Assembly: GCA_041551965.1 (NCBI GenBank)
Contig: JBFELU010000002.1
Location: 5,829-69,828, forward strand
Source: Acidimicrobiia bacterium
GTDB lineage: Bacteria; Actinomycetota; Acidimicrobiia; Spongiisociales; UBA11373
DNA: 64,000 nt
Reading direction: 5' to 3'
A program made the position numbers and the translations under genes. How positions within the stretch are numbered: the first letter of the stretch is position 1; every line of letters starts with the position of its first letter. Shown here piece after piece: positions 7,873-29,337 of this stretch. A model generated the notes under the pieces. That model saw only the letters and a program-made list of their open reading frames with translations, was not told the origin of the DNA and did no database searches.

Positions 7873-8477
7873 TCGCCACCCCCCACGCTGCCGAGCGGAC
7901 CGAAGGCCGGAACGGGCGCCACCGCGCCCTCGGCCTCGGCGGGGCCCCACTCGAATGAGCGCCGGCCGCCGAAGCGTTCCTGCATCTCGTCGCCGCGAAC
8001 CACCTCGGGCAGCTCCTCGCGCAGCCAGCGGCACAGGGCCCGGCCCTGCTCCGGGGTCACCCCCTCCACCAACTCGTAGTTGACCTGGACCGCGGGGGCC
8101 CCGCCGCAGGCACCGATGCACTCCACGTGCTCGACCCCGAACAGGTCGTCGGCGTCGCCGTCGGCCACACCGGTCTCGTCGGCGACGGCGTCCAGCACGT
8201 CGTCGGCTCCCAGCAGCATGCACGAGATGGAGGTGCACACCGAGACCAGGTAGCGGCCCGGGGGGCGACGCTTGTACATCGTGTAGAAGGAGGCCACCGC
8301 CTGGACCTGGGCGGGACTGAGCCCGGTCAGGTCCGCCACCCGGCGTTGCCCGGCGTCGGTGAGGTGCCCGTCGTGGAACATCACCAGATAGAGGAGCGGC
8401 ATCACCGCCGACCGTTTGTCGGGGTAGCGGGCGATGATCTCCCGGGCCCGTTCCTCGAGATCCGGTGACCAGGTCAT
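7869..8477 (-). CDS. nuoE: NADH-quinone oxidoreductase subunit E (24 kDa, 2Fe-2S)
   Basis: Thioredoxin-like 2Fe-2S subunit with CTSISCMLLG...VECIGACGGAPA. The start MTWSPDLEERAREIIARYPDKRSAVMPLLYL at 8477 overlaps the nuoD stop (ATGA). The track ORF's upstream extension was rejected. Confidence 0.88.
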
Positions 8478-9904
8478 CGATCTACGTCTCCCAGCACCGG
8501 GTCGACCGAGGCGAGGGTGGCGACCGTGTCGGCGATCAGCGAGTCGGTGAGCATCACCGGAAGGGCCTGCACGTTGGCGAACGACGGGGCCCGAACGTGG
8601 AGGCGCCACGGCTTGGAACCACCGTCCGACACGACGAACATCCCCAGCTCACCGCGAGGCGACTCGATGGCCTGGTAGATCTCACCCTCGGGCACCTTGA
8701 AGCCCTCGGTGAAGATCTTGAAGTGGTGGATCAGCGCCTCCATCGACTGGTTGATGCGCATGCGGGGCGGCGGCGTGATCTTGCGGTCGTCGGAGCGGTA
8801 GTCGCCCCGGGGCATGCGCTCGACGGCCTGGCGCACGAGAGACAGCGACTGCCGCATCTCCTCCATCCGCACCAGATAGCGGTCGAAGGTGTCGCCGTGC
8901 TTCCCGATGGGGACCTCGAAGTCGTATTCCTCGATCCCGGAGTAGGGAAACGCCTTGCGAAGGTCCCAGTCGATCCCGGAGGCCCGCATGATCGGTCCGG
9001 TCACCCCGTAGGCGAGACATTCCTCCGGGGTGATGACCCCGACCCCCTGGGTCCGCTCGATGAAGATCGGGTTCCCTGTGAGCAGATCCTCGTAGTCGGC
9101 GATGCCCCTCGGGATGAGCTCCAGGAGCCGCTCGACGTCGTCCTCCCACCCGTCGGGGAGATCGGCGGCGACGCCGCCGGTGCGGATGTAGTTGTGGTTC
9201 ATCCGCAGCCCGGTGACCTTCTCGAAGAAGTTGAGGATCTCCTCCCGCTCCCGAAAGCCGTAGAGCATCATCGACAGGGCCCCGACGTCCATGCCCTGGG
9301 TGGCCACCCACACCAGGTGGGACGAGAGCCGATTGAGTTCCGTCATCAGGATGCGGATCACCCGGGCCCGGGGCGGGACCTCGATGCCGAGCAGGGCCTC
9401 CGTCGCCAGCGAGAAACAGAGTTCATTGTGGAAGGGCGACAGGTAGTCCATGCGGGTGACGTTGGTGGGGCCCTGGAGGAACGAGAGCGTCTCAGCGGTC
9501 TTCTCCATCCCGGTGTGGAGATAGCCGATGATCGGCTTGGCACGCCGGATCGTCTCCCCGTCGAGTTCGAGTTGGAGGCGGAGCACCCCGTGGGTGGCGG
9601 GGTGCTGGGGTCCCATGTTGACGATCTGGACTTCATCCCCGACGGCTTCGGGTTCCTCCAGGTAGTCGTCGGCGACCAGCCGTCCCTCCTGGTCGGCGAG
9701 CACCGCACCCTCCTCGGCCCCCAGCATCTCCTGGGCGCCCTCGTCGGTGAACCGCCCCAGGTCTGCCGGGGTCTCGGTGCCGGTGAGCCACATCTCGTGG
9801 ACACGGCGCCGATCGACCGCCGGATCGGCCGTCTCGGTGGTGGCGGGGCGCTCGACCGAGGGAGTCTCGAGGTCGCCGGTGCTGAGATCGGGAGGATTGC
9901 TCAT
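8474..9904 (-). CDS. nuoD: NADH-quinone oxidoreductase subunit D (49 kDa)
   Basis: Contains NMGPQHPATHGVLRL, ELDGE and the C-terminal RVRAPSFANVQALP motifs. The 476-aa form has an ~60 aa acidic N-terminal extension. An internal Met would give ~439 aa, but the ATGA overlap with the nuoC stop at 9904 supports the long form. Confidence 0.88.
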   Translation of the reverse strand: MSNPPDLSTGDLETPSVERPATTETADPAVDRRRVHEMWLTGTETPADLGRFTDEGAQEMLGAEEGAVLADQEGRLVADDYLEEPEAVGDEVQIVNMGPQHPATHGVLRLQLELDGETIRRAKPIIGYLHTGMEKTAETLSFLQGPTNVTRMDYLSPFHNELCFSLATEALLGIEVPPRARVIRILMTELNRLSSHLVWVATQGMDVGALSMMLYGFREREEILNFFEKVTGLRMNHNYIRTGGVAADLPDGWEDDVERLLELIPRGIADYEDLLTGNPIFIERTQGVGVITPEECLAYGVTGPIMRASGIDWDLRKAFPYSGIEEYDFEVPIGKHGDTFDRYLVRMEEMRQSLSLVRQAVERMPRGDYRSDDRKITPPPRMRINQSMEALIHHFKIFTEGFKVPEGEIYQAIESPRGELGMFVVSDGGSKPWRLHVRAPSFANVQALPVMLTDSLIADTVATLASVDPVLGDVDR

Positions 9905-10347
9905 GTCGCCTTGTCGGCCCCCTTGAACTGAATCGGCACCGAGCCGACCGGTTCGTCCTTGCGGAGCGGATGCCCGTACCAGTCGTCCGGGAGCAGGATC
10001 CGGGTCAGCGAGGGGTGCCCGGGGAAGCGGATCCCGAAGAGGTCGTAGGCCTCACGCTCGTAGAAGTTGGCCCCGGGGAACACCCCGGTGATCGAGGGAA
10101 CCTCAGGCGGGTCGCCGGCCGCCGCCACCGAGATATGCAGGCGTGCCTTCTCGGCGATGTTGAGGAGGTTGACCACGACTTCGAACCGATCGGGCCGCCG
10201 GTGGAGGTGATCGACGGCGGCCAGGTCCACGAACAGTTCGTAGCCGGCGTCCCGGGCCGCCTCCACGAAAGAGACCAGGTCCTCAGCACCGACACGGACC
10301 CTCCCCTCCCCTTCGAAGGTGGCATCGGGGAAGGCCTCGGGGTTCAT
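9901..10347 (-). CDS. nuoC: NADH-quinone oxidoreductase subunit C (30 kDa)
   Basis: [19 protein letters not shown]...[23 protein letters not shown] is characteristic NuoC, 148 aa. The start at 10347 overlaps the nuoB stop (ATGA). The rest of track ORF 9901..10899 is an out-of-gene extension. Confidence 0.88.
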
Positions 10348-10820
10348 CGCAGTGCCGCCTTCCCCTCCATCACCATGTCCTGGAGCGTGAGGATTCCGTG
10401 GATCAGCGATTGCGGGCCGGGGGGGCAGCCGGGGACGTAGACGTCGACGGGGACTACCTGATCGACACCCTGAACCAGGGCATTGTTGTTGAACATGCCG
10501 CCGGTCGAAGCGCAGGCCCCCATCGAGATGACCCACTTGGGCTCCGGCATCTGGTCGTAGACCTGGCGAAGCACCGGGGCCATCTTTTGGGAGAGGCGCC
10601 CGGCCACGATCATCAGATCGGCCTGGCGGGGCGAGGCCCGGAACACCTCCATGCCGAAGCGGGCCAGGTCGTGGTGGGCGGCGCCGGTCGACATCATCTC
10701 GATGGCACAGCAGGCGAGCCCGAAGGTGGCCGGCCACATGGAACGGGTGCGGGCCCAGTTGACCGCCTTGTGGAGGGTGGTGGTGAGGATGTTCTCCGAG
10801 GGCCGCTCGGCTCGCGCCAT
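10344..10820 (-). CDS. nuoB: NADH-quinone oxidoreductase subunit B (20 kDa, 4Fe-4S N2)
   Basis: [13 protein letters not shown]...[10 protein letters not shown]...YVPGCPP cluster-N2 Cys motifs, 158 aa. The start [27 protein letters not shown] at 10820 overlaps the nuoA stop. Confidence 0.9.
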
Positions 10821-11236
10821 CAGGCGGCCTCCTCGACGTCGGGGGCCACCACCCGGCGATAGCGCTCCCGGCGGGCGATGTTCCAATCGAGCGCCCCACG
10901 GCGCCACACGTAGACCAGGGTCTCGATCAGCAGGAAGGTGAAGATCCCCACTGCGGCCACGCCCGGCCAACCGAGTGTCTCGAATCGCACCGCCCAGGCG
11001 AAGAGGAACACGATCTCGATGTCGAAGATCACGAACAGCATCGCCACCAGATAGAACTTCACGGGGAACCGCTGGACCGGCTCCTGGAGCGGCACGATGC
11101 CGCACTCGTAGGGCTCAAGCTTCTCCGGCGTGGGGTTGCGGGGAGCGATGAGCCGGCCCAGGAGCATGACGAGGCTCGCAAAACCGAGGGCCAGGAGGAA
11201 CATGATGGCGATCGGCAGGTAGTCGGTCAGCGTCAT
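10820..11236 (-). CDS. nuoA: NADH-quinone oxidoreductase subunit A
   Basis: 138 aa protein with 3 TM helices ([27 protein letters not shown]...PYECGIVP). It is the first gene of the operon, with a GGAG Shine-Dalgarno 8-11 nt upstream of its ATG. Confidence 0.9.
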
Positions 11237-11407: not shown

Positions 11408-14400
11408 TCAGCCGCCAACGGTGATCGTGAAGATCTGCACGGCCGAAACGTCGATCCCACCGTCGGCGGTGCCGCCGTCGTCGCGGATCCGGATCTCGAG
11501 GGTGGCCGTGCCGATGCCGACCGCGACGGGAGTGAAGGTGAGGGTCCCATCACCGGCCACTGCGGGCAGCACATCGAAGAGACCCGGGTTGTCGTTGGCA
11601 GTCACTTCGAAGGTGAGCACCTGCCAGGCCTCATCCGGGGGACCGGCGACGATCCCGGTTCCCCAGGCGGCCGAGTAGGCGCCCGAACCTTCGGTCACCG
11701 TCACGTCGGGACCCTTGGTGAACCGGGGAACGTCGTTCACCGGCGTCACCACGATGGTGAGCATCACGGTGGGAGAGGTGTCCTCGCCGCCGTCTGCGGT
11801 CCCGCCGTCGTCGCGGAGCCGGATACCGATGAAGGCGGTGCCGGCGGCGTCGGCGGCGGGGGTGAAGCTCAGCGTGCCGTCGAGGGCGACGGCCGGGGGC
11901 GTGGCGAACAGGTCGGCATTGGAGTTGGCCACGACCTCGAAGGAGAGCGCCTGGCCGGCCTCGTCGGCCGGACCGGCGGTCATGCCGGTGGCCCAGGCCG
12001 CGGCATGGGCGCCCGAGTCCTCGGCGATCACCACGTCGAAGCCCCGATCGAAGGCGGGGGCGTCGTTCAACGCGCCGACCGCCACCGTGACCGTGGCGGT
12101 GGCGTATCCCCCGAGACCGTCGGTGATCGAGTAGGTGAAGGTGTCGGTGCCGGAGAAGTCGGCCGGAGGCTCATAGCGATAGCTGCCGCCGCCCACATCG
12201 GTGACCGTGCCGCCCTGAGCGGTCGCCACATCGAATCCCGACAGCGTCACCGGATCCAGATCGGCATCGGTGTCGTTGGCCAGCCAATCGCCCGCGTCCG
12301 AGAACACGATGGCCCCGTCCTCGAAGACCGGGAAGGGTCCGTCGGAGGTCGCGACCGGCGGGTTGTTCGTGGTGGCGTTGTTGGCGCCGCCCACGCTCGT
12401 CACCCGGGTCCCGAAGGCATCGGTGTCGATCGTGAGGGCCGCAGCGGCACAGGTCGCCGCCCCGGAGGTTGCCGGCTCCCAGCAGAAGCTGTCGTCGGCG
12501 TCCTGACCGTTGGGGGCGAGAGACAGCGATTGGCCGAACGCGACCGGGATCAGCGCCCCCTCGTTGTTGGGCAGCGGATCCCAGACCCCGAGGGCGTCGG
12601 GCGGGTTTCCGTTGCGGTTCGCCGCAGTGTCGGGCCCCCAGGCCACGAAGTCGACCAGTTCGTATCCCTCGTCGTACAGCCACAGCTCGTCGCCGGCGGA
12701 ATCGAGGAGCGTGGAGCCGCCGGCCCACAGCTCGAGATCGGTCCCGCCCACCACGTTGGTGAAGCCCGGGTTCGTCGTGGTCTGGTCGACCCCCAACCAC
12801 AGCACCGCATAGCCGCCCGCCGGGATCACGCTCCCGCCGGGGAAGGCATAGGTGAACGAGGCGGGAGCGTCGAAGGACCCGGTGATGTGGTCCGAATCGG
12901 ACAGCATCCACCCCGACACGTCGAGCGGGTGCCCGGAGGCGTTGTAGAGCTCGACGAACTCGTCGTTCTCGATGATGCCTTCCAGTCCCGTGCTCTGCTC
13001 GAAGAGAACCTCATTGATCACGGCCCGGCCCGCTTCCGGCGACAGGACGTAGTCGGTCACCGTCACGGTGACGGTCGCCGTGTCGGTCAGCGCACCGTCG
13101 GTGACGTCGTACGTGAAGGTGTCGACCCCGATGAAGGTGCCGTTGGGGGTGTAGGTACACCCGTTGGCGTCACATGTCACGCTGCCCTGAGCGGTGGCCG
13201 TCGGTCCGGACGGCACGATGCTGAGAGCGTCGCCGTCGGCGTCGGTGTCGTTGTCGACCAGTTCGGCGGCCGGGATCACCAGCGTGGCGACGAGGGCCAC
13301 CTCGAAGTCGGCCGCCGTGTCGCCGCCGTCGGGATCATCACCGGCCAGCGGGGCGTCGGCGACCGGGGTCACCGCGATCAGCACGGCGCCGGTGGCCGGA
13401 TCGGTGCCGTCGGTGACCGAGTAGGTGAACGTGTCGGCCCCGGCGAAGTCGGCGGGCGGGTCATAGCGGTACGACCCGGCGCCGAGATCGGTGACCGTGC
13501 CCCCGGCGGCGGTGATCGCATCGAACCCGGTGAGGGTGATGGCGCCGCCCTCGATGTCGGTGTCGTTCCCCAGCCAGTCGGTGGCCGCGGTGAAGGTGAG
13601 CGGGGTGTCCTCGGCGGTGGTGTACCAATCGCCGGCGGCGTTGGGGGCGTCGTTGACGGCCGACACCGTGACGGTGACCGTCGCGGTATCGCTGTCGGTG
13701 CCGTCGCTCACGGTGTAGGTGAAGGTGTCGGTCCCGCCGAAGTGGGCCGGCGGGGTGTAGGTGTAGGTGCCGTTGCCGTGGTCGACGACGGACCCGCCCG
13801 CGCTGGAGATCCCGTCGAAAGCGCTCACCGTGAGCGGATCGGCGTCGGGATCGGTGTCGTTCCCCAGCCAGTCGGTGGCGGCATGGAACAGCTTGGGAGT
13901 GTCCTCGTCGGTGGCCGCCGAGTCGTCGGTCGCTTCTGGTGGGTCGTTGACCGCACCGACGCTCACCGTCACGGTGGCGGTGTCGGTGCCGCCTGCTCCG
14001 TCGGACACCGTGTAGGTGAAGGTGTCGCTGCCGTTGAACCCTGCCGCCGGGGTGTAGGTATAGGTGCCGTCGAGGTTGTCGACGATGGTGCCGCCCGCGG
14101 TCGACGCGGCATCGAACGCCGTGATGGTGAGCGGGTCGTTCTCGGGGTCGGTGTCGTTCCCCAGCCAATCGGTCGAGGCGGTGAAGACCTTGGGGGTGTC
14201 CTCGTCGGTCGAGGCGGTGTCGTCGACGGCATCGGGCGGATCATCGACGGCGGTGACGGTCACCGTGACGGTGGCGGTGCCGGTGTTCCCGGCGGCGTCG
14301 GTGGCGGTGTAGGTGAAGGTGTCTTCGCCGGAGAACTCGGCGGCCGGGGTGTAGGTGTAGGAGCCGTCCAGGTTGTCGACGATGGTGCCGCCTTCCTTCG

Positions 14401-17398
14401 AGGCGGTGTCGAACTCCTTGATCGTCAGCGTCTCTCCATCGTCGTGGGTGTCGTTCCCCAGCCAGCTCGTCGAAGCGACGAAGGTGAACGCAGTGTCCTC
14501 GGTCGTCGTGGCGGTGTCGTCGACGGCCTTCACCGGATTGACAAACGGGTCGACCGTGACCGTCACCGTTGCCGAGGCACACTTGCCACCGGTGTCGCAG
14601 ATCTTGTAGACGAAGGTGTCGGTGCCCTCGAAGCCGTCGTCGGAGGTGTAGGTGACCTTCCCGTCTGAGGGGACGGCGGTCCCGTCTCCGGGCTGCCCCT
14701 TGATGCTCAAGGTGGCCGCATCGAGCTCACCGTCGATGTCGCTGTCGTTGGCGAGCACATCGACGGTCACCGGCTCTCCCGATTCGGTGGTGGCCGTGTC
14801 GGCCACGGCCGTCGGTTTGTCGTTCACTTCGGTGATGGTGATCGTGACGGTTGCCGAGGCGGTGCCGCCGCGCCCGTCCGAGATCGTGTAGCCGAACGTC
14901 TGAGTGCCGAAGTCCTCCGCGTCCGGGGTGTAGGTGAAGGTGGTCCCCGTCCTGGTGAGCGTCCCCTTCTCCGGATCGGTGCTCGAGGTGATGGTGAGCA
15001 AGTCGCCGTCGGGATCGGAGTCGTTGGACAGCGGAGTGATGACGACCGGTCCTCCGTCCTCGGCGACCGTGGCCGCGTCGTCGGCCGCCGACGGTGGGTT
15101 GTTGGGGTCCTCCTCGACCGTGACCTCGATGGTCACCACGGCCGAGGCCGTCCCGCCGTTGCCGTCGTCGATCACGTAGCCGAACGTGTCGAGAATGAGC
15201 CCGCTCTGGGTGGGCCCGAAGACGGGGGGCGTGTACAGGCAGGCGCCGGCCTCACACGACACGGTGCCGCCGAGCGCCGAGAACGAGTCCGGCGTGGGAG
15301 TGAGCGTATCCCCCTCCGGGTCGCCGTCGTTGGTGAGGATGTCGATTGTGACGGCGACACCTTCGATGGTTGCGCCACCGTCGGGCTCGGCAAAGGGAGG
15401 ATCGTTGACGGGTGCGACCGTCACGGTCACGATGCCTTCGGCGCACGCTCCACGCAGGTCGCAGACGCCGTAGAAGAAGGTCTCGACGCCGGACACCTCC
15501 GGGTCGGGCACGTAGCGGAGCGCACCGTCGAGGGGCATCGCCGTGCCCAGCGTCGGGGGGACCGCCACGAACAGGGTCCCCGGATCGAGTTCGTCCTCGG
15601 GGTCCTCGTCGTTCGACAGAGCCGGGATGACGACCGGCACGTCTTCGTCGGTCTCGGCCGAGTCGTCACCGACCATCGGAGGGTCGTTCACCGGGAGGAC
15701 CTCGATCATCACGGTCGCCACGCCGCCCAACCCGGCGACGTTCTCCACGCGGTAGCGGATCTCCGCCATGCCGAACCAGTTCGGCTCCGGCGTGAAGAGG
15801 ATGCCCTCGGGCAGCACCTCCGTCGTGCCGTGCTCGGGGCCCACGATGACGACCAGGGTCGCCGGATCGAGGCCCAGATCATCGAGATCGTTGGCGAGCA
15901 CGTCGACGAGCACCGGCACGTCCTCGTCGATCACGGCCTCGTCGTCCACCAGGCCGGGTGGTGCATTCGGCGACGAAGACGAGAGCAAGAGCTCGATGAG
16001 AGCCACCGGTTCGCCCTCCGGTCCCATGATGAGGACCGCCAGCCGGTCCTCACCGTCGAAGCCGGGGCCGGGCGTGTACGAGAGGATGCCACCTCGGATC
16101 GTCGCGGTCCCCCATGTCGGAGCATCCCAGATCTCTGCCGCCAGCCCCGCCGCGAGTTCCGACGGATCGAGGACTTCGATGTCGGTCGTCTCCTCGAACA
16201 GCACCCCGATCTCCACCTCCGCCCGTCGGGCATCCCCGAGCTGGATCAGCGGAACGGTCGTAGTGCTGGCGATCGTGACTTCTTCAGCTGGCAGCGGCGG
16301 GAGAGAGATCTCCGGTTCCACATCGGGGGGAGCGATCACCCCGGCACCGGCCAGAGCCAGTGCCGCCGAGGCCGCCACCGACGCCATGCCCACTCCGGCG
16401 CCTGCGCTCCGGAGGAACGGGAGCTGACCGAGCAACGAAGCGGGCCCGGCAACCCAGCGCAGCCGGCTCGGGGCGATGCGCAGGAAAGCCCGGACCACAT
16501 CGGCGTCGAATTGCCCGCCGGCGTTGCGGGCCAGTTCCTCGCGAGCCGCCGCCGCCGACAGGGGCTTCTTGTGGGATCGGCCCGAGGTCATCACGTCGAA
16601 GGCATCGGCAACCGCACAGATGCGGCCTGCCAGCGAGATCTCCTCGCCGGTCTTGCCGTCGGGGTACCCGGTTCCGTCGAAGCGTTCGTGGTGCTCGCCG
16701 ATCGCCCCGGCCCAGTCGCCGAGCCACTCCCGGAGCGGGCCGCACAACTCGAGGCCGTGCTGCGGATGCTGCTCGATCTTCGCCCACTCGGCATCGGTCA
16801 AGCTTCCGGCCTTGCCCAGGATTCCTTCGCTGATTCGAAGCTTCCCGATGTCGTGGAGGGTGGCCGCCCACCCCAGCTTCCCAAGTGATGCTTCATCGAG
16901 GCCGAGCTCTCGGCCCATCAACTCTGCATACGCCGCCACCCGGCCCCGGTCGCCGAACCGGCCGTGCTGACGTACCGCACTCGTGAGCAACTCCCCCAGC
17001 GCACCGTCGAGATCTCCGGGATCCAGGTTGCCGAGTCCGGCCAGATGATCCTCGACGGATCTTCGCGACCGCCGTGCGACCTGCAGACGTGACGGGGCTT
17101 CGCCGGGGAACTCGAGAGTCATCCCCAGCAGCGACGCCAGCGGTCCCAGGGGCCGAAGCAACGTTCGGATCGCAAACAGGCCGGCACCCGATGCCGCGAC
17201 CACGGCGCCCCACCACCCAGCCTGCTGGAGCAGACCGTCGGGGGCCGGCGCGAACCGAGCGGCGGCGACTGCAGCACCGGCGGCGCCTGCCACCGGCAAG
17301 AGCGCCGTCAGCGCCCGCACGCCGCGTGCCGGCCACGGACGCTTCTGCCACCGTTTGGCCGCGCCCCCGGATTCCTGAGGGACTTGATCCGTCATCAC
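11408..17398 (-). CDS. Giant multidomain membrane protein: N-terminal 2 TM helices, cytoplasmic HD-GYP phosphodiesterase domain, third TM helix, then ~1600-aa array of cadherin-like/VCBS-type tandem repeats with an inserted lamin-tail domain (LTD)
   Basis: Single uninterrupted 1996-aa ORF. Hydrophobic helices at about aa 27-48 and 60-80. HD-GYP signatures: LHDIGK (aa ~181), HPQHG, and EHHERFDGTGYPDG (aa ~236), spanning roughly nt 16483..17056. A third hydrophobic segment follows (GVGMASVAASAALALAGAGVIA, aa ~334-356). About 12 repeats of ~95 aa are delimited by VNDPP, VNDAP, VNDKP and VDDPP motifs, with ...TDWLGNDTD...DGTYTYTP..F.G.DTFTYTV.DG....TATVTVTV..VND.P in each. An LTD (VINEVLFEQSTGLEGIIENDEFVELYNASGHPLDVSGWMLSD) lies at about nt 12636..13019. 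GC content and codon usage match neighbouring genes. Confidence 0.8.
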   Translation of the reverse strand: MMTDQVPQESGGAAKRWQKRPWPARGVRALTALLPVAGAAGAAVAAARFAPAPDGLLQQAGWWGAVVAASGAGLFAIRTLLRPLGPLASLLGMTLEFPGEAPSRLQVARRSRRSVEDHLAGLGNLDPGDLDGALGELLTSAVRQHGRFGDRGRVAAYAELMGRELGLDEASLGKLGWAATLHDIGKLRISEGILGKAGSLTDAEWAKIEQHPQHGLELCGPLREWLGDWAGAIGEHHERFDGTGYPDGKTGEEISLAGRICAVADAFDVMTSGRSHKKPLSAAAAREELARNAGGQFDADVVRAFLRIAPSRLRWVAGPASLLGQLPFLRSAGAGVGMASVAASAALALAGAGVIAPPDVEPEISLPPLPAEEVTIASTTTVPLIQLGDARRAEVEIGVLFEETTDIEVLDPSELAAGLAAEIWDAPTWGTATIRGGILSYTPGPGFDGEDRLAVLIMGPEGEPVALIELLLSSSSPNAPPGLVDDEAVIDEDVPVLVDVLANDLDDLGLDPATLVVIVGPEHGTTEVLPEGILFTPEPNWFGMAEIRYRVENVAGLGGVATVMIEVLPVNDPPMVGDDSAETDEDVPVVIPALSNDEDPEDELDPGTLFVAVPPTLGTAMPLDGALRYVPDPEVSGVETFFYGVCDLRGACAEGIVTVTVAPVNDPPFAEPDGGATIEGVAVTIDILTNDGDPEGDTLTPTPDSFSALGGTVSCEAGACLYTPPVFGPTQSGLILDTFGYVIDDGNGGTASAVVTIEVTVEEDPNNPPSAADDAATVAEDGGPVVITPLSNDSDPDGDLLTITSSTDPEKGTLTRTGTTFTYTPDAEDFGTQTFGYTISDGRGGTASATVTITITEVNDKPTAVADTATTESGEPVTVDVLANDSDIDGELDAATLSIKGQPGDGTAVPSDGKVTYTSDDGFEGTDTFVYKICDTGGKCASATVTVTVDPFVNPVKAVDDTATTTEDTAFTFVASTSWLGNDTHDDGETLTIKEFDTASKEGGTIVDNLDGSYTYTPAAEFSGEDTFTYTATDAAGNTGTATVTVTVTAVDDPPDAVDDTASTDEDTPKVFTASTDWLGNDTDPENDPLTITAFDAASTAGGTIVDNLDGTYTYTPAAGFNGSDTFTYTVSDGAGGTDTATVTVSVGAVNDPPEATDDSAATDEDTPKLFHAATDWLGNDTDPDADPLTVSAFDGISSAGGSVVDHGNGTYTYTPPAHFGGTDTFTYTVSDGTDSDTATVTVTVSAVNDAPNAAGDWYTTAEDTPLTFTAATDWLGNDTDIEGGAITLTGFDAITAAGGTVTDLGAGSYRYDPPADFAGADTFTYSVTDGTDPATGAVLIAVTPVADAPLAGDDPDGGDTAADFEVALVATLVIPAAELVDNDTDADGDALSIVPSGPTATAQGSVTCDANGCTYTPNGTFIGVDTFTYDVTDGALTDTATVTVTVTDYVLSPEAGRAVINEVLFEQSTGLEGIIENDEFVELYNASGHPLDVSGWMLSDSDHITGSFDAPASFTYAFPGGSVIPAGGYAVLWLGVDQTTTNPGFTNVVGGTDLELWAGGSTLLDSAGDELWLYDEGYELVDFVAWGPDTAANRNGNPPDALGVWDPLPNNEGALIPVAFGQSLSLAPNGQDADDSFCWEPATSGAATCAAAALTIDTDAFGTRVTSVGGANNATTNNPPVATSDGPFPVFEDGAIVFSDAGDWLANDTDADLDPVTLSGFDVATAQGGTVTDVGGGSYRYEPPADFSGTDTFTYSITDGLGGYATATVTVAVGALNDAPAFDRGFDVVIAEDSGAHAAAWATGMTAGPADEAGQALSFEVVANSNADLFATPPAVALDGTLSFTPAADAAGTAFIGIRLRDDGGTADGGEDTSPTVMLTIVVTPVNDVPRFTKGPDVTVTEGSGAYSAAWGTGIVAGPPDEAWQVLTFEVTANDNPGLFDVLPAVAGDGTLTFTPVAVGIGTATLEIRIRDDGGTADGGIDVSAVQIFTITVGG

Positions 17399-17470: not shown

Positions 17471-18709
17471 CTAGGGCTCGGGGCCGACTTGGACGATCCG
17501 CTCGACGACCCGGTAGGCCTCTTCCGCCATGTGGTGCTCCCCGGGTCGCAGCAGGTTGGCCATCACCCGCAGGACCCACTCCATCAGCGGGCGGGACCGC
17601 AGCCCGATGCGGGTGAGGGCCTTCATCACACCCGGCCGGCCGATCGCTCTCACGAAGGCTCGAGACGTTCGGTAGTAGAGGCCGTAGGTGTCATCGAGCT
17701 CGTAGCGATAGCCGTGGAGCAGCGACGCGTCTCCGGCGGCGAGGGCGGCATGCACGTGCCGGGCGGCGATCCGGCCGGTCTCGTAGGCGTAGGCGATGCC
17801 CTCCCCGTTGAAGGGATTGACGGCGCCGGCGGCGTCACCCACCAAGACCCAGTTGGGACCGACCTTGGGACCCACCGAGAACGCCATCGGGAGCTTCCCG
17901 CCGCGTGGCTCGCTCACCTTCGAGTGAGGGCCGAGATCCCAGTACTCGGGTGCCGTCACCTCGAGCGCCGTCATCAGCACCGAGGTGTTGACATCCTTCC
18001 AGCGGTGGAAGGTCGACAACACACCGACCCCGACGTTGACGGTGCCGTCGCCCAGCGGGAAGACCCATCCGTAGCCCGGCACGGTGGCTCCCTCGGCATC
18101 TCGGAGATCGAGGTGACTCTCGATGTATCGGTCGTCGGAGCGAGGGCTGGCGTAGTAGCCGCGTGCGGCGAGCCCGAACGGCAGGTGCCGGTCCCTCTCG
18201 GCCGACAGTGACCGGCCGAACCGGCTCAGCGAGCCGTCGGCGACGACGACGATCCGGGGAGAGACGACCTCGCGATCCTCCCCCGCCACCAGCTCCACCG
18301 CAGTGAGGCGACCTTCGTCGAGTACCGGCTTGGCCTCCGTGCCGGCCCGCAGCACGGCACCCTGCTTCTCGGCCAGGCGAGCGACCTCCCAGTCGAGATC
18401 GGCCCGGCGAAGCACGCCACCCCAGTTGGGGTAGACCGGGTGGTCGGGCCATTCCAGCTCGAGCATGAGGTCGCCCGAGTAGGCGCGCAGACCACCGACC
18501 CGGTGGAACTCCGGCAGAGAGAAATCGAAGCCCATGTCCTCGAGTTGGCGGATGGAACGGGGGGTGAGGCCATCGCCACACGGCTTGGGACGGGGGTACT
18601 CCTTCTTCTCGGCCACGAGGACGGAGTGGCCCTCCCGGGCCAGCCAGTGAGCCGCGGCGGCGCCTCCCGGTCCACCGCCGACGACCAGCACGTCGAGTCG
18701 ATCGGCCAT
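17471..18709 (-). CDS. Geranylgeranyl reductase family FAD-dependent oxidoreductase (MenJ-like)
   Basis: MADRLDVLVVGGGPGGAAAAHWLAREGHSVLVAEKKEYPRPKPCGDGLTP is an FAD Rossmann plus GGR-family signature, 412 aa. The 66-aa Ser/Pro-rich N-terminal extension in the track ORF is not homologous. Confidence 0.85.
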   Translation of the reverse strand: MADRLDVLVVGGGPGGAAAAHWLAREGHSVLVAEKKEYPRPKPCGDGLTPRSIRQLEDMGFDFSLPEFHRVGGLRAYSGDLMLELEWPDHPVYPNWGGVLRRADLDWEVARLAEKQGAVLRAGTEAKPVLDEGRLTAVELVAGEDREVVSPRIVVVADGSLSRFGRSLSAERDRHLPFGLAARGYYASPRSDDRYIESHLDLRDAEGATVPGYGWVFPLGDGTVNVGVGVLSTFHRWKDVNTSVLMTALEVTAPEYWDLGPHSKVSEPRGGKLPMAFSVGPKVGPNWVLVGDAAGAVNPFNGEGIAYAYETGRIAARHVHAALAAGDASLLHGYRYELDDTYGLYYRTSRAFVRAIGRPGVMKALTRIGLRSRPLMEWVLRVMANLLRPGEHHMAEEAYRVVERIVQVGPEP

Positions 18710-18752
18710 GGCAGCGAGATTACCGGGGGGTGGATCGGTAGCCGAAGGCGGG

Positions 18753-19619
18753 CTACTCGCCGGCGGCGCCCTCGTCGATCTCGGCGAGACCGCAGTCGAC
18801 GAGAGCCTCGTCGAGTGACTGGCCGCCGAACTGGACCCGTTCGTAGAGGACCACGGCCCGGATCTCCTCTTCGGAAAGGGCGCCCTGGAAGCCGGGCATC
18901 TGGGCACCGCTGCCGCCGACCGGCTTTTCGGTGGCCCCGTAGGTCGACTCGGGCCAGTCGGCCGTGCCGAGGGTCACCCAGTCGACCTGAGCCTGGCACT
19001 GGCCCGGAGGGAAGGTCTGCAACAGGGCCCCACCGGTGAATCCGGGGAAGTTGCCTGCACCGCCCCCGCCCTCACCGTGGCACGCGGCACAGGTGGCGTA
19101 TTCGAGGCTCCCGATCGAGAAGAAGTCGGTCAACGAGAGCCCGTACGGGCTGCCGTCGCAACCCACGGCGACGCCCGAAACCGGATCGACCGCCAGCCGC
19201 CCGGCATCGCCGCAGTTGGGGCCGTTGGGGAAGAAGAGGGCATAGCCGATGGCAAAGGCCGGCACGATCATGAACAAAACCACCAGCCAGCGAGGAATGG
19301 CACCGGCAGCCACCGCGTCCTCCTCGCTCTCGTAGCGGGGTTCCTCCTCGGAGATCACTTCGGGGGCCGGAGGAGCCTCCACTCCGATCACCTCGACCTC
19401 GGGTCCCTCGGCCGGGGCCGGGGCGGCCGGAGCCTCGCCGGTCGGCTCGGCGGCAGGTGCGGTGGATTCGGCGGGAGCAACCGCCTCGCCGCCCCCCCAA
19501 GCCGCCAGCACCGATTCCATGGAAACGCCCTGGGCCTTGGCCCGCGCCTCGGCGGAACGTAGCACCAGCACCTCGGGAGTACCGAGTGCGGCGGCTGCGG
19601 CGGCGAGAAGTTCTTCCAT
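18753..19619 (-). CDS. Membrane-anchored monoheme c-type cytochrome (CcoP-like)
   Basis: Single CAACHGE heme-binding motif and one TM helix (IPRWLVVLFMIVPAFAIGYALFF). The start MEELLAAAAAALGTPEV at 19619 lies 4 nt after the upstream stop. The N-terminal segment EVLVLRSAEARAKAQGVSMESVLAAW resembles the repeat motif of the subunit IV-like protein at 23541. Confidence 0.8.
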   Translation of the reverse strand: MEELLAAAAAALGTPEVLVLRSAEARAKAQGVSMESVLAAWGGGEAVAPAESTAPAAEPTGEAPAAPAPAEGPEVEVIGVEAPPAPEVISEEEPRYESEEDAVAAGAIPRWLVVLFMIVPAFAIGYALFFPNGPNCGDAGRLAVDPVSGVAVGCDGSPYGLSLTDFFSIGSLEYATCAACHGEGGGGAGNFPGFTGGALLQTFPPGQCQAQVDWVTLGTADWPESTYGATEKPVGGSGAQMPGFQGALSEEEIRAVVLYERVQFGGQSLDEALVDCGLAEIDEGAAGE

Positions 19620-19623: not shown

Positions 19624-21531
19624 CTACTCCAGTCCCGCCACGTAGACGGCGAGAGCCGCCCGTTCATCGGCGGACAGGTGATCGAATGCCGGCATCGTCG
19701 ACCAGGGGCGGACCGCCCGCGGATCGGCCAGGTAGTCCGTCAGGGCGGCGGCATCGCCGGCGAACTGCCTGCTTCCGGCATGAGCGAGGTCGGGACCGAT
19801 CCGCATGAGACCCAGCAGATCGACGTCGTCGTTGGCATAGTCGCCGACCACCGAGACCGGACCCAGGCCCACGTCGGTCACGATCCCCCGCACCTGCTGT
19901 GTGTGGCAATACCAGCAACCTTCCCGGACGTAGAGGTCACGCCCGAGGGAACCGACGGGTTCCTCTTCGTGGGGACGGGTCGCCTCGGCGAGAAGCGAGG
20001 GAGGATCCCCGGTATCGGCCGCCGGGAGCACCACCACCGACACCGCCACGACGACGAACACCACTGCAATGCCGCGGAGGATGGTGCGGAGCGGAGCACG
20101 GGGGCCGTCGACCCCGACGTCCTCATCGAGACCGGCTCCGCCCAGCGTGACCAGGAAGCCGAGCAACAAGAAGAGGGCGGCGATGACCACCAGGCCGAGC
20201 CCGACCACCTGGGTCACCTGCAACCCCTCCAGTGGCACCACGGAGCTGCGAAAGGCTTCGCCGACATTGGCCGCCGAGTCCGGGCTCACCGACCCGACCC
20301 AGGTGTAGCCCTGCTGGAGACCGCCGATCCAACGAGAGGCGAGGACCGTGCCCAGCCCCGCCGCCAACGCCCCGATCTGCACGGCGCCGAGAGCACGGGG
20401 CCACGAACGATTCGAAGCCGCATGAACGGCGGCAAAGGCAAACGCCGTGGCGGCGCCGAAGAGCGCCAGGACCTCGACGGATCCCTCCCACAGTGTGAAG
20501 TGGAGGACCGAACTCGCACCGCGAAGCGACCCGATGAAGAGATGGATCGCCGTGATCACCACCAAGCCGACACCGATGACCGACAACTGGACCGATCGCG
20601 ACTCTGAGACCACCGCCCACCGCCCCCGCAGCGCGTGCGCGAAGTCGGCGGCGATGGTGAACGCCGCCACGATGAGACCGGCGCCGAAAAGCACCGGCAC
20701 CGTCTCGAGCCAGTCCGGCGTCGGTCCGTATTGGAGCTCCCGAGGAGCCATCCACAGCCAGGAGAAGAGCAGCGACCAGAAGCCGATCGCACCGAGCCGA
20801 GGATGAAAGGACCAACCGGTCGACCGGCCGACCAGGTAGTAGGCGATACCGATGCCGAGCATCGCCGGGCCGAGGCCGCCGATCACCGTGGCGGCGAACC
20901 GCCCCTGCAGTGCCGCAGGAACACCGTCGAGCCCGGGGATCGCTCCGGTCACGAAGCCCGCCCATTGCAGCCAAAGTCCGGCCACGACATACCAGGCCGC
21001 CGTGGGCAGCCCCTCGGTCGACCCCCGCACGGCTCGCGTGACGGCCGCGGCCATTGCCAACAAGCCGACTGCGACCGCGGCGTCGGACCACCAGGGGAGC
21101 TCGAGCAACCGGCCGCCGGCGCTCTCACCGAGGAGGATGCCCGCCGTTCCCGCGCCGAGACCACCCGCGACCGCCAGCAGGCCACCCACGGTCAATGCAG
21201 GGGCCGGCCGTTGCCCGCCGAGCCGGGGAATCACCCAGATCGCACCACCGGCCAGGCCGAGAGTGAGCCAACCCACCACCACGGCATTCAACGACGCGGG
21301 CAGGAGCCGCCCGTACGCGAGGTACTCCTCTCCGGCCAGGAAGTCGGGCCAAACGAGCTTGGCCGCAGCGGCGGCATACGCGGCCGAGCCGATCAACAGC
21401 AGCACGACGGCCACCGCCAGGTAGAGGCGGGCGATCCCGGACGGAGCCATACCGGTGGCGGCGTTCGGGGATTCGATGGTGTCGGTGGCGGGCACTCCCC
21501 CGTCCCTCCGTCGTGTGTCGGCCGAGAACAT
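19624..21531 (-). CDS. Fused CcoN-like 12-TM domain plus CcoO/FixO-like monoheme cytochrome c (cbb3-type oxidase-like; catalytic His ligands apparently absent)
   Basis: 636 aa from the ATG at 21531 (MFSADTRRRDGG); the upstream part of the 1027-aa track ORF is an artifact overlapping plus-strand genes. A ~450 aa polytopic domain with a WW motif is followed by a TM anchor, then RDLYVREGCWYCHTQQVRG...IGPDLAHAG...RPWSTMPAF. This matches the CcoO signature (IYIREGCYxCHSQ...GPDL...MPsY). The membrane domain has only 5 His in total, no HH pair, and the WW motif is followed by SD rather than GHNA. Confidence 0.72.
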   Translation of the reverse strand: MFSADTRRRDGGVPATDTIESPNAATGMAPSGIARLYLAVAVVLLLIGSAAYAAAAAKLVWPDFLAGEEYLAYGRLLPASLNAVVVGWLTLGLAGGAIWVIPRLGGQRPAPALTVGGLLAVAGGLGAGTAGILLGESAGGRLLELPWWSDAAVAVGLLAMAAAVTRAVRGSTEGLPTAAWYVVAGLWLQWAGFVTGAIPGLDGVPAALQGRFAATVIGGLGPAMLGIGIAYYLVGRSTGWSFHPRLGAIGFWSLLFSWLWMAPRELQYGPTPDWLETVPVLFGAGLIVAAFTIAADFAHALRGRWAVVSESRSVQLSVIGVGLVVITAIHLFIGSLRGASSVLHFTLWEGSVEVLALFGAATAFAFAAVHAASNRSWPRALGAVQIGALAAGLGTVLASRWIGGLQQGYTWVGSVSPDSAANVGEAFRSSVVPLEGLQVTQVVGLGLVVIAALFLLLGFLVTLGGAGLDEDVGVDGPRAPLRTILRGIAVVFVVVAVSVVVLPAADTGDPPSLLAEATRPHEEEPVGSLGRDLYVREGCWYCHTQQVRGIVTDVGLGPVSVVGDYANDDVDLLGLMRIGPDLAHAGSRQFAGDAAALTDYLADPRAVRPWSTMPAFDHLSADERAALAVYVAGLE

Positions 21532-21639
21532 TAGCCCCACCGTCCGAGGTCCACGCGGGGCGGGACGATTGTCTCGAACAGACCGGGCGGCGTCAAAGCA
21601 CGTCGGCCCGGTTCTCCCCCGGGCGGCGGGGCGCGTACA

Positions 21640-22290
21640 ATGTCGCCGCTTTCGGAGGAGGAGCCCGGCCGCGTGACCGAGCAGCAACGCGTCAGGATCG
21701 GCATCGCCGGAATCGGCGCAGGCTCGGTGCTGCTCGTGGTCGGGGTGCTGATCGCTCACTTCACGGGGCTGGCTGAAACCGACGGAGTGGGCCGGGAGAT
21801 CTACCCCCACATCCCCCGATGTCTGCCGTGGGAAGACGATCCCGCCAAGTGCTGGATGCTGCCGACGGGAGGGCAGATCATCGCGTTCGTCGGCAGCCAG
21901 CTGCTCCTGGCCGGAATCGTGCTCGGCTGGATCCTGGGGCGGCCCCTCACCTGGGCCCGGGCCTCCGCGGCCGCCATGCTTTTCACGGTCGAGGCGATCC
22001 TCCTCTTCGGCGTGGTCCCCAATCAGTGGCTCACGCTGGCGCAGGGGACCTTCGAGTGGACCGAGCAGAAGATCGCCTTCACGTTGCCGCGATGGCTCGT
22101 GCTCAACAACGAGGTCGGAATCTCCTACGGGGCGATCAAGGATCTCGTCTCCGGCGGCTACTCGGCGGTGATGCTCGGCGTGATCGCCGTCACCGCGTAT
22201 CAGTTGCAGGAGCGGGCCAAGCGCAAGGATGAGCCGCCGCCCCCGCGGATCTCGGCCTACGGTCGACCGATGGTGAAGGGAGAGCGCTAG
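21640..22290 (+). CDS. Integral membrane protein (4-5 TM), first gene of the bc-type complex operon
   Basis: Hydrophobic 216 aa protein with high GC3. An alternative GTG start at 21673 follows a GGAGGAGG Shine-Dalgarno; a TACAAT -10-like hexamer lies at 21635-21640. Confidence 0.6.
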
Positions 22291-22740
22291 ATGGCGAAGA
22301 CGGACGTTTGGTTCGAGACGCCCCCTTTCCGCGACGACTACCAACTCGCCGTCGTCGACGAGCAGTACCTTCTCGACGCCGTCAAGCCGAAGCAGTTCCT
22401 CCACATCGACCAAAGCGAGTGCATCCTCTGCGAAGGATGCGTCGACATCTGCCCGTGGAAGTGCATCCACTACCTCTCGATCGACGCCATCGCCGAATCG
22501 TCCAACGTCGACGACCCTCGCGCCGACGAGGGCAATCGGGGCTTCTTCGTGGTCGACGAGGACGAGTGCACCCGTTGTGCGCTGTGTGTGGACCGCTGCC
22601 CCACCGGCGTGATCAGCCTCGGCAAGTTCGCCGGGTCGCTGGCGGACCAGGCCGACCGGCGGGGTGTGGAGGCACCGTGGGAGGTCGACAGCGGGCAGCG
22701 CGACCACAAGAACGGCTACGCATACGGAATGCGGTTCTAG
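22291..22740 (+). CDS. 2x[4Fe-4S] ferredoxin-domain protein
   Basis: Two cluster motifs, [12 protein letters not shown] and [16 protein letters not shown] overlap with the upstream gene. Confidence 0.8.
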
Positions 22741-27411: not shown

Positions 27412-28038
27412 CTAGGCGTCGGCTCCGGCCCGATGCAGGTAGTACGACAGCACCTTGAGCTCCGTCGACAGGTCGACTCGCCGCACATCCACGTCGTCGG
27501 GGACCTGGACGTGGGCGGGTGCGAAGTTGAGAATCGACTTGACACCGGAATCGGCGAGGAGGTCGGCCACCTCCTGGGCCGAGTCGGCCGGCGTGGTGAT
27601 CATCCCGATCGAGACCCGCCGTTTCTTCACCGCCTCCGCAAGCCTCTCGACCGGCTCGATCTCGAGTGAGTGGATGTGGGCCCCGACCTTGCCCGGGTCG
27701 CTGTCGAAGAGACCGACGACGACGAAGCCCTCCTCGGCGAATCCCCGGTAATTGGCGAGGGCGAGACCGAGGTTCCCCACCCCGACGATGGCCACCCGCC
27801 AATCCTGAGTGAGCCCGAGGGCCCGCCGGATCTCATAGCGGAGGTGCTCCACCTCGTAGCCGACGCCGCGTACCCCGTATGAACCGAGATAGGAGAGGTC
27901 CTTGCGGACCTTGGCGGAGTTCACCCCGGCACCGGCGGCGAGCTCCTCGCTCGAAATCCCCTCTTCGGAGACCCGATCGAGGACCTTCAGATACAGCGGC
28001 AGGCGCTGCACGGTGGCGCGGGGAACGGTCGGTTTCAC
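27412..28038 (-). CDS. rex: Redox-sensing transcriptional repressor Rex
   Basis: QRLPLYLKVL winged-helix N-terminus and AIVGVGNLGLALANY Rossmann NADH motif. GTG start. Confidence 0.85.
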   Translation of the reverse strand: MKPTVPRATVQRLPLYLKVLDRVSEEGISSEELAAGAGVNSAKVRKDLSYLGSYGVRGVGYEVEHLRYEIRRALGLTQDWRVAIVGVGNLGLALANYRGFAEEGFVVVGLFDSDPGKVGAHIHSLEIEPVERLAEAVKKRRVSIGMITTPADSAQEVADLLADSGVKSILNFAPAHVQVPDDVDVRRVDLSTELKVLSYYLHRAGADA

Positions 28039-28422: not shown

Positions 28423-29244
28423 TCATCGTGCAGCTCCTGTCGGTCCAGCCCTGAAGCCGACCGAGACCCGCTCGGCCAAAGCGAACACCTCGTCGGCCCT
28501 CCCTCCTCGGACCGCGATGGCCATCAGACCGTACGAATCGGTGTGCACCAGGCCGACGCCCTCCCCGACATCGGCGTATGCCATCACCCAGGGCAGATCG
28601 TGGCTCGTCGAACCGACCCGGACCTTCACGACGTCGCCCGGGACGAGACCCGCGGCCTCCAGGTCGGCGGGCCCGATGTTGGTCTGGGCGTTGCCGAATG
28701 AATCGATCCACCACACTTCTCCCTGGACGAAACCGTCGCCTTGCTCGGGCAGCGGCAGGAGCAGCGGCATCAGCGTCCCGGTATCGACGGGAGCCCCGAG
28801 GTCTCCGAGCTCTGCCTCTCCCGAGGCGAGCACGGCGGCCGCCGGCGCAAAGACGTCGCGGCCCTCGAAGGTGGCTCCCTGTGACGGGAGCCGATAGGCG
28901 GGCGCATCGAGAACCACCGCCCGGCCCACCCCTCCGACCACCGCCACGGCCGGAGCCAACAGGCCGTTGTCGGGCCCCACGAAGTGACCCCACTCGGTCT
29001 CGAGTGCCACCGGGCGCCTTCCCCCACCCACTCCGGGATCGACGACCCCCAACACCACGCCCTCGGGCAGGTACTGCACCGCCCGGAGCAGCGCCAGGGC
29101 CCCGGCCCGCACGTTGCCACGCGGAACCCCGTGGGTCACATCGATCACCCGAATCTCCGGGGCGATGCGGGCGATCACACCGTGGACGACGCCGACGAAC
29201 TCGTCGGCGTGGCCGAAGTCGGAGAGGAACGAGATCGAGGCCAT
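28423..29244 (-). CDS. S-adenosyl-L-methionine hydroxide adenosyltransferase family protein (DUF62)
   Basis: MASISFLSDFGHADEFVGVVHGVIARIAP...DVTHGVP...GVVDPGVGG...VGPDNGLL is the SAM hydrolase/fluorinase-family fold, 273 aa. Confidence 0.75.
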   Translation of the reverse strand: MASISFLSDFGHADEFVGVVHGVIARIAPEIRVIDVTHGVPRGNVRAGALALLRAVQYLPEGVVLGVVDPGVGGGRRPVALETEWGHFVGPDNGLLAPAVAVVGGVGRAVVLDAPAYRLPSQGATFEGRDVFAPAAAVLASGEAELGDLGAPVDTGTLMPLLLPLPEQGDGFVQGEVWWIDSFGNAQTNIGPADLEAAGLVPGDVVKVRVGSTSHDLPWVMAYADVGEGVGLVHTDSYGLMAIAVRGGRADEVFALAERVSVGFRAGPTGAAR

Positions 29245-29337
29245 CGCCGGCGGAGGATACCCGGCCCGCCGAAGACATCACCCCGATACAATCCGCGACC
29301 CGACGAGGAGGCGGCGATCAACGACATCCACGCCGGT

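Follow-up and report, generated by a model that had tools for sequence, protein, structure and literature searches.

Control of attachment by the second messenger cyclic di-GMP (c-di-GMP) is understood mainly in Gram-negative multi-protein relays (LapD/LapG/LapA and DvhD/DvhG), and the locus described here raises the question of how to read a gene that unites a c-di-GMP domain and a surface structure in one polypeptide. The gene lies in the window, by which we mean the whole 64,000-nucleotide stretch of an Acidimicrobiia genome (contig JBFELU010000002.1), where a single open reading frame (ORF) at 11408..17398 on the minus strand encodes an HD-GYP domain followed by a giant repeat array. The gene is genuine, and its product stands at the largest-ectodomain end of a big family of membrane-bound HD-GYP signaling proteins, with a catalytic site that is not intact. 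From the sequence, a surface rod coupled to c-di-GMP is plausible. The reading we favor, to which we would give somewhat less than an even chance, is receptor-type coupling, in which engagement of the ectodomain would change c-di-GMP turnover by the HD-GYP domain.

The ORF runs for 1,996 codons from a GTG at 17398 to a stop codon at 11408–11410. Database gene calls start at the ATG that forms codon 2 (17395), giving 1,995 aa, and residues are numbered throughout from this ATG. The GC content at third codon positions (0.87) matched that of the neighboring genes, and a protein identical to the product was present in the homology database (P0121). That the frame is uninterrupted, as the first-pass annotation had it, was confirmed by an independent Joint Genome Institute (JGI) assembly (L082; 99.91% identity to the window across 16.9 kb), whose copy of the gene had equal length with 6 single-nucleotide polymorphisms and no indels, and by ortholog P0122 (locus L001), which is colinear at 84% identity and whose alignment over 1,909 codons has just 4 gap positions; neither contained a stop or frameshift between the HD-GYP part and the repeats. 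These two comparisons exclude assembly collapse and a hidden frameshift. The idea of an artefact, whether from chimeric assembly, from collapse or expansion of the repeat array, or from a frameshift fusing two genes, draws on the short-read contigs of three other assemblies of the same strain (L083, L084, and L085), all of which stop within the 3' portion of the giant gene; against it stand also the DNA-level identity among the repeats of only ~76% and the occurrence of the same fusion in more than 25 other clusters, and it is effectively refuted. Judging by the same contig ends, short-read assemblies are evidently prone to break at this gene, so that the 'short' members of the family found in databases may be incomplete.

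Purifying selection acts across the whole ORF. Between the window protein and P0122, the ratio of nonsynonymous to synonymous substitution rates (dN/dS) was 0.16 overall and 0.14–0.23 outside the HD-GYP domain (dS 0.45–0.74), with residues 358–479 the least constrained segment (0.225); the HD-GYP domain had the lowest value among all segments (0.116 at dS 0.74). Loci L001 and L082 both came from JGI sample 3300041074, so that two related populations co-occurred there, one 99.9% identical to the window and the other with 93% identity in NuoD and 84% in the giant protein. Scanning the two flanks for promoters and terminators yielded nothing, a result that is uninformative at 68% GC.

Profile scans bore out the combination of HD-GYP and cadherin-like repeats that had been annotated. 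The protein consists, in order, of two transmembrane (TM) helices, the HD-GYP domain, a third TM helix (TM3), and approximately 1,640 acidic residues that hold 11 tandem-95 (Big_9/Cadherin_5) repeats, three divergent Ig-like domains, and one lamin-tail domain (LTD). The tandem array reported earlier therefore stands, but its count of about 12 repeats gives way to 11 canonical repeats plus the three divergent domains. Pfam HD_5 and HD scored 111 bits (E = 1e-32; cut-off 27.2) and 53.6 bits (cut-off 22), respectively; Big_9 reached 665 bits, with 11 stretches matched by Big_9, Cadherin_5, or Cadherin_4, and the NCBIfam tandem-95 model (NF012211) matched 11 stretches at 638.5 bits against a cut-off of 90. 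The embedded LTD was also upheld (PF00932, residues 1454–1587; 59.8 bits against 34.3), so both tandem-95/Big_9 and LTD membership lie above curated cut-offs. For LTDs in bacteria, the function is still unsettled (PMC6085458). The model for BapA/Bap/LapF adhesins (NF045619) scored 102.3 bits, below its cut-off of 180. The protein is likewise not an adhesin of the LPXTG type: its N-terminus is a basic cytoplasmic segment with a TM hairpin instead of a signal peptide, and the LPXTG motif is absent from the sequence, whose C-terminus reads ...IFTITVGG.

The features of the gene, all on the minus strand, begin with the basic N-terminus (residues 1–24), which carries KRWQKRPWPAR before TM1. Hydrophobic peaks at approximately residues 25–47 (TM1, 17255..17323; peak hydropathy 1.83), 59–81 (TM2, 17153..17221; 1.47, with 1.5–2.6 in relatives), and 332–357 (TM3, 16325..16402; 1.91) agreed with the three TM helices originally proposed. 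In an AlphaFold2 (AF2) model based on a 20-sequence alignment (mean predicted local distance difference test score, pLDDT, 75), TM1 and TM2 formed a helical hairpin (helices 20–48 and 55–89; pLDDT 83–93 and 86–94, respectively) around a predicted outside loop of about 12 residues (48–58), and the HD-GYP core reached ~90. A conserved juxtamembrane segment (approximately residues 82–145; family consensus RRLLPLAAL..LSLVFPD.APSRF from the alignment) leads to the HD-GYP domain (16436..16960, approximately residues 146–320; Pfam HD_5/HD, PDB, and Foldseek matches), at whose start lies a remodeled metal-site loop identified from alignments (16940..16966, residues 144–152, HGRFGDRGR). Beyond TM3, residues 358–479 (15959..16324) comprise a Pro/Glu/Thr-rich linker of ~35 residues and a divergent membrane-proximal Ig-like domain with a weak Big_9 match (E = 0.005, below cut-off). 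Ten tandem-95 repeats of 92–102 residues follow (13058..15958, approximately residues 480–1446; Pfam and NCBIfam), every one with an acidic [LV]xNDxDx[DE] motif and four with a close Cys pair. The LTD (12635..13036; dN/dS 0.156) extends with its linker to approximately residue 1675, a region in which the Cys1638–Cys1649 pair sits, and is followed by the eleventh repeat (12071..12370, residues 1676–1775) and two C-terminal divergent Cadherin_5/Big_9-like domains of 110 residues each (11411..12070, residues 1776–1995; Cadherin_5 E = 1.7e-7 over 2 stretches).

The previously predicted topology, with a cytoplasmic HD-GYP domain and the repeats and LTD outside, was supported by the charge distribution, the Cys pairs, the composition, and the AF2 hairpin. 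Lys and Arg number five in residues 1–25 and zero in the TM1–TM2 loop; TM3 is preceded by four Lys/Arg and no acidic residues and followed by eight Asp/Glu in the acidic PPDVEPEISLPPLPAEE. The C-terminal 1,640 residues contain 16.8% Asp plus Glu, 2.0% Lys plus Arg, and 13.7% Thr, and all ten ectodomain cysteines fall into five pairs spaced 4–10 residues apart. The HD-GYP domain would thus be tethered to the membrane at both ends, with TM3 predicted to act as a signal-anchor whose N-terminal end is inside and C-terminal end outside, and the ectodomain would be a rod, stiffened by Ca2+ and roughly 60 nm long, that crosses the wall of a monoderm cell. TM3 might instead be an internal cleavable signal peptide, so that the array, free of the HD-GYP module, is either released or bound to the wall on its own. 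The helix is indeed rich in Ala, Gly, and Ser, with small residues at candidate -3/-1 positions (AALALAGAG), and the protein has neither another export signal nor a C-terminal anchor; but once cleaved, the array would lack any retention signal (no LPXTG), and internal signal-anchors behind a 330-residue cytoplasmic domain normally stay uncleaved. We consider such a split very improbable.

The first-pass annotation had regarded the architecture as one without known relatives, and this view was not supported. When the N-terminal 480 aa were searched, scoring only the 8,000 candidates that shared most words, more than 1,349 proteins matched at ~45% identity (E down to 3e-92), mostly 450–830 aa long; named members came from Acidimicrobiia, Actinomycetota, Ilumatobacteraceae, Actinotalea, and Kineococcus. 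Approximately one-quarter of the best 120 carried Big_9, and others pentapeptide repeats, fn3, or Big_3_5. When a profile covered just the first 143 columns of the N-terminal module, with the HD-GYP domain left out, it retrieved 1,772 clusters defined at 50% identity (of which 1,530 had E <= 1e-10); the module thus delimits a family of ~1,500–1,800 clusters, and 26 of the 150 best matches, roughly one in six, have at least 1,000 aa. Both HD-GYP motifs were found in 106 of the 111 members with at least 420 aa, and 89 of these 106 showed a TM3-like hydropathy peak. In the window protein and 26 long relatives, HD_5 was detected in 27 of 27 and Big_9/Cadherin_5 in 25 of 27, and a full-length search returned ~20 proteins of 1,175–2,151 aa that pair HD_5 with Big_9-type arrays, alongside others with FG-GAP, PA14, NHL, or fn3. 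A scan of contigs for HD-GYP motifs also located the full module in L002–L006 among the matches listed.

As judged from these alignments and profiles, the family occurs mainly in Acidimicrobiia and other Actinomycetota and combines a constant module (basic N-terminus, TM1–TM2 hairpin, juxtamembrane segment, HD-GYP domain, and TM3) with a highly variable ectodomain, of which the window protein is the extreme-size end and not a singleton. Ectodomains of the family include Big_9, He_PIG, fn3, FG-GAP, PKD, NHL, and pentapeptide repeats, and have a median length of ~330 aa and a 95th percentile of ~1,180 aa; at ~1,640 aa, the window protein lies in the extreme tail. It fits the family module (RW..RP, TM1, short loop, WW-containing TM2, and LPLAAL..LSLVFPD.APSRF), departing at FPD (FPG), and its TM3 follows the conserved GPxSxLxxxP segment and precedes the non-cytoplasmic C-terminal region. 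Many database proteins therefore share this architecture, as the first-pass annotation had foreseen as a challenge to its novelty, but they carry only generic names ('tandem-95 repeat protein', 'HD-GYP domain-containing protein'). A description of the architecture was not found in the open-access papers and bioRxiv preprints searched, a scope in which absence is not proof. The best match of the N-terminal-module profile, P0209 (757 aa), aligned in two stretches, the better at residues 167–300, and its module may be duplicated or N-terminally extended.

This variety bears on an explanation without any coupling, in which the protein is a wall-spanning surface protein or adhesin and its HD-GYP anchor serves as a constitutive (or vestigial) housekeeping or local phosphodiesterase (PDE). 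Ectodomains appear to be swapped and resized freely on near-identical modules: modules with 93–100% identity were carried by products of 421–3,583 aa, although some of the short ones were perhaps cut by contig ends. Relatives have long disordered Pro/Thr-rich tethers, conservation is poor and complexity low in TM3 and the segment after it, and one ortholog is tolerated with an insertion sequence (IS) element splitting its ectodomain (L089, ENA ERZ28763718 ctg105813), where a DDE_3 element at 9695–10798 leaves ORFs of 1,221, 1,398, and at least 1,083 aa. On the other hand, the fusion has been maintained over the whole range of clusters, with the module essentially only found with HD-GYP; conservation is high in the stretch that precedes TM3 (GRLRxVxGPLSWLAQLP); a plain anchor needs no 330-residue enzyme with a two-ended tether; and both halves are under purifying selection. 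We regard the absence of coupling as rather unlikely.

For the HD-GYP site, the earlier statement that all catalytic signatures are present did not hold. The domain was assigned to the HD-GYP family by the HD/HD_5 profiles, its fold, the HD dyad, and the HHExh(D/N)GxGYP motif. Sequence matches in PDB were 5z7c, 4mcw, 4r8z, and 9rbz, and DvhD, PmGH, and PA4781 were the top Foldseek matches of the AF2 model (probability 1.00 to 9rbz, 4mcw, and 4r8z). Both HDIGK and HHERFDGTGYP are present, and the retained residues are H181-D182 (LHDIGK), K185, H210, H235-H236-E237, G243-Y244-P245, D264, D267, R273, and K276. They include the equivalents of the PmGH ligands H250, H276, H277, and D305 (H210, H235, H236, and D264, respectively) and of K225 and D308 (K185 and D267); 6 of the 7 family-conserved metal ligands are kept, as are the nucleotide-contacting residues K185, Y244, R273, K276, and I253 (alignment read against PMC4159591). 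Where relatives read HD[RP]xTRGH[SAGT][ED]RV, however, the window protein reads HGRF--GDRGRV and P0122 reads HGRL--GDQGRV. The equivalent of PmGH H189 is thereby Asp149, and that of D183 is Gly145, beside a 2-residue deletion; HMMER aligned Asp149 with the His of GHSERV in 5Z7C, and PmGH numbering was obtained by offset from the 4MCW alignment. His occupied the H189 position in 277 of 280 regex-parsed HD-GYPs, the only exceptions being P0121, P0202, and P0122 (the window lineage; Asp), and Asp occupied the D183 position in 274 of 280. The RxYK motif is R273-S-H275-K276, with Arg and Lys kept and the change of Tyr to His restricted to the window lineage; Galperin and Chou (10.1101/2021.11.05.467447) linked RxY[K/R] to c-di-GMP specificity. 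As for catalytic degeneracy, raised at the outset as a possible objection, two positions essential in PmGH are changed, and the other ligands are kept.

Departures from near-invariant family columns numbered 10 in the window protein against 0–6 in 19 aligned relatives; five of the 10 fall at residues 141–149, and another is the Tyr of RxYK. The AF2 pLDDT drops to 55 at residues 141–150, compared with ~90 around them. HD-GYP modules of the window lineage and of orthologs at the same genomic position shared 53% identity, and those orthologs shared 62% with each other, whereas NuoD was ~70% identical among all three lineages. The lower identity at equal NuoD distance, together with the dN/dS of 0.116, indicates a modest past acceleration followed by constraint, and this dN/dS also shows that the remodeled domain is not decaying. 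The module of the window lineage probably still binds nucleotide, with turnover slowed or altered.

For the window lineage, the remodeled site puts an inside-out role, in which c-di-GMP is bound, about level in plausibility with an outside-in role. In this alternative, possible but on the unlikely side, the protein would be an inside-out receptor fused to its adhesin: the HD-GYP domain would bind and no longer hydrolyze c-di-GMP, and rearrangement of the HD-GYP dimer and TM3 would alter the oligomeric state, exposure, or retention of the rod, so that a single polypeptide would follow the logic of LapD/LapG/LapA and DvhD/DvhG. The loss of the H189 and D183 equivalents in the window lineage only is consistent with it, since H189, which ligates metal where helix alpha-6 begins, and D183 cannot be replaced by Ala in PmGH without abolishing activity (PMC4159591). 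So are the concentration of departures at the active site, the faster evolution of the module on the window branch that has now given way to constraint, and the retention of nucleotide-contacting residues. DvhD, the top structural match, is itself an HD-GYP c-di-GMP switch that moves juxtamembrane helices, but it has lost its HD (now SQ) and HH (now MN) ligands (PMC13090378), whereas 6 of 7 remain in the window protein. Asp can also ligate metals, and RpfG, with Phe at the H189 position, was first shown to have PDE activity (PMC4159591), though significant RpfG activity was doubted by Galperin and Chou (10.1101/2021.11.05.467447). Moreover, the remaining family members, positional orthologs among them, have a complete site, which limits this alternative to one lineage, and a LapG/DvhG-like protease gene was not found nearby.

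Under receptor-type coupling, which we still prefer, the rod or its LTD would engage a surface, a matrix polymer, or a neighboring cell, so that molecules cluster or are pulled. Clustering or tension would shift TM3 relative to the TM1–TM2 hairpin and alter the HD-GYP dimer, and local c-di-GMP hydrolysis could thereby depend on attachment. HD-GYP domains act as dimers, and the stalk helices of DvhD respond to c-di-GMP (PMC13090378). The reading fits a domain clamped at both ends, and it fits the packing of the C-terminal helices of PmGH on the helices bearing H189 and D305 (PMC4159591). Several observations weigh against it. In many relatives (L002, L003, L004, and L005), a long Pro/Thr-rich, probably disordered linker lies between TM3 and the folded ectodomain of one or more Ig-like domains, and through such linkers no classical allosteric signal could pass, only tension or clustering. 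The TM3 helix (335–352) is placed with low confidence by AF2. Given the inactivity of PmGH H189A and D183A, the domain of the window lineage may not hydrolyze c-di-GMP, and no c-di-GMP genes are adjacent to the giant gene in the window. A more specific and quite speculative proposal, which we think improbable in its full form, is that the family acts as a single-polypeptide adhesion or mechano-receptor, with an LTD-tipped rod of ~60 nm (and products of up to 3,583 aa in orthologs) converting engagement or tension directly to c-di-GMP turnover, the window lineage having become a nucleotide-binding switch or acquired a new cyclic-dinucleotide specificity.

Comparison with known systems places the window protein between several classes. 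The catalytic HD-GYPs PmGH (4MCW), PA4781 (4R8Z), and V-cGAP3 (5Z7C) have the same fold and ~30–45% local identity to its HD-GYP domain, and share with it the HD dyad, HHExxDGxGYP, the H250 and D305 equivalents, the K225 equivalent, and RxxK; the window protein differs by the change of H189 to Asp, of D183 to Gly with the 2-residue deletion, and of the RxYK Tyr to His. In those enzymes the domain is C-terminal in a soluble or N-terminal-sensor protein, whereas here it lies between TM helices and is followed by the 1,640-residue C-terminal ectodomain. HD-GYP domains are typically C-terminal to sensor domains, and none of the HD-GYP proteins with extracytoplasmic sensors has been characterized experimentally (Galperin and Chou, 10.1101/2021.11.05.467447); the terms 'Ig-like', 'adhesin', and 'Actinobacter' are all absent from the main text of that survey. 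Proteins that join dCache, CHASE2, or PBPb to HD-GYP resemble the window protein in being membrane-bound with an outside domain and a cytoplasmic HD-GYP domain, so that hydrolysis could be controlled from outside, but their sensor is small, ligand-binding, and N-terminal between two TMs, while the outside part of the window protein is C-terminal after TM3 and consists of Ig-like repeats and an LTD.

DvhD (HD-GYP) and LapD (EAL) are inner-membrane proteins that link c-di-GMP to the display of a giant repeat adhesin (PMC13090378). They belong to three-protein systems (receptor, periplasmic protease, and separate adhesin), whereas the window protein has receptor and adhesin-like array in one polypeptide; DvhD further has a dCache periplasmic domain and a PAS domain and has lost both the HD and HH ligands (PMC13090378), which the window protein keeps while changing two essential positions. 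With giant tandem-95/Big_9 surface proteins (NF012211; BapA/LapF-type), the window protein shares the repeats, the acidic NDxDxD motifs, and the rod-like array. It differs from BapA/LapF-type adhesins in lacking an N-terminal signal peptide, LPXTG, and an RTX or type I secretion signal, and in having an internal TM anchor behind a signaling enzyme. Actinobacterial PknB-type PASTA kinases and eukaryotic receptor protein-tyrosine phosphatases combine a cytoplasmic catalytic domain, one TM, and extracellular repeats, and localization or oligomerization driven by the ectodomain controls the enzyme. The logic would be the same here by analogy; the domains are unrelated, the window protein has an additional N-terminal TM hairpin, and its ectodomain is approximately an order of magnitude larger than that of PknB. 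HD-GYP proteins of Streptomyces (HdgA, MASE9 domain) were set aside, their architecture being a different one.

Were the proposal of a single-polypeptide adhesion or mechano-receptor true, the family would be the bacterial equivalent of receptor-type phosphatases and would offer, in one protein, an alternative to the Lap system. With second-messenger domain and surface structure in one polypeptide, the link between attachment and c-di-GMP could be put to a direct test, and the cultured genera Actinotalea and Kineococcus have short-ectodomain members suited to genetics. A metal ligand that is invariant elsewhere has changed in one lineage while purifying selection there is strong, which constitutes a natural experiment and bears on how HD-GYP enzymes turn into receptors or alter their chemistry.

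The giant gene is preceded by a FAD-dependent geranylgeranyl-reductase-like (GGR-like) gene (17471..18907, minus strand; Pfam) and followed by nuoA (10820..11236, minus strand; Pfam), the first gene of the NADH dehydrogenase operon. The order ccoNO, cytochrome c, FAD GGR-like reductase, giant HD-GYP gene, and nuoA...N was found in the window, L082, L086, L087, and L089, with positional orthologs of 2,052 aa (P0123, L086) and 2,092 aa (P0125, L087) and P0133/P0205 for L089; in L001 (P0122), the contig ends just inside the giant gene, and only the part from the giant gene to nuoA is visible. We rejected the notion that nuo synteny is purely lineage-specific, since P0123, P0125, and P0133 share it. 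The positional orthologs keep the canonical His at the H189 position, and their identities to the window proteins were 68–71% for NuoD, 56–63% for the GGR-like reductase, 47–50% for the HD-GYP module, and 33–35% for the ectodomain. The conserved site and this ranking indicate that the gene has long been resident there and evolves fast, its outside part fastest. Two giants located elsewhere (P0131 and P0136) and the family members of L002–L006 lack nuo synteny, and no basis for a functional link to respiration was found in the loci examined. No separate adhesin was found near the window gene either, its neighbors being the cbb3 oxidase, cytochrome c, GGR-like reductase, and nuo operon.

The intact allele of the IS-split ortholog, P0205, lies on another contig and encodes 3,583 aa with 5 Big_9, 14 He_PIG, and 4 LTD stretches, and P0126 and P0130 have two membrane-distal LTDs each. 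In L086, a separate 111-aa LTD ORF (12204–12539) directly follows P0123 and precedes nuoA, and may be a split-off C-terminal LTD or reflect a frameshift. From these four cases, the LTD emerges as a recurrent distal module. A GGDEF-EAL protein encoded two genes downstream of P0136 (L090, 10724–13021, minus strand) was the only c-di-GMP gene near any member examined. The heliorhodopsin neighbor of P0131 was compared with a paper and set aside as irrelevant.

Several minor observations concern the surrounding genes. One ORF of the window (19624–22707, minus strand) contains both COX1 (CcoN-like, residues 425–804) and FixO (CcoO, residues 883–1015) and appears to be a cbb3-type CcoNO fusion; its first ~400 codons are probably noncoding, because a Fer4 gene occupies the plus strand at 22291–22740, and a COX1+FixO fusion of 615–652 aa was also present in L086, L087, and L089. 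NuoD has 476 aa in the window (8474–9904, minus strand), L082, and L083 and 448 aa in L001 (7206–8611), where the last 23 residues match in another frame, probably because of a frameshift or an error in sequencing. A Rex-type redox-sensing repressor (Put_DNA-bind_N and CoA_binding; 27412–28038, minus strand) is encoded within this respiratory neighborhood (nuo, cbb3 oxidase, and cytochrome b/c). Farther along, a 405-aa protein (28984–30201, plus strand) carries a CLP1_P P-loop domain of the Clp1/Grc3-type polynucleotide kinase family (E = 1e-25), which is unusual in bacteria, and a gene with three DUF7282 repeats (37818–39014, minus strand; E = 7e-60) lies close to that of a ZnuA-type metal-binding lipoprotein (39886–40785, minus strand).

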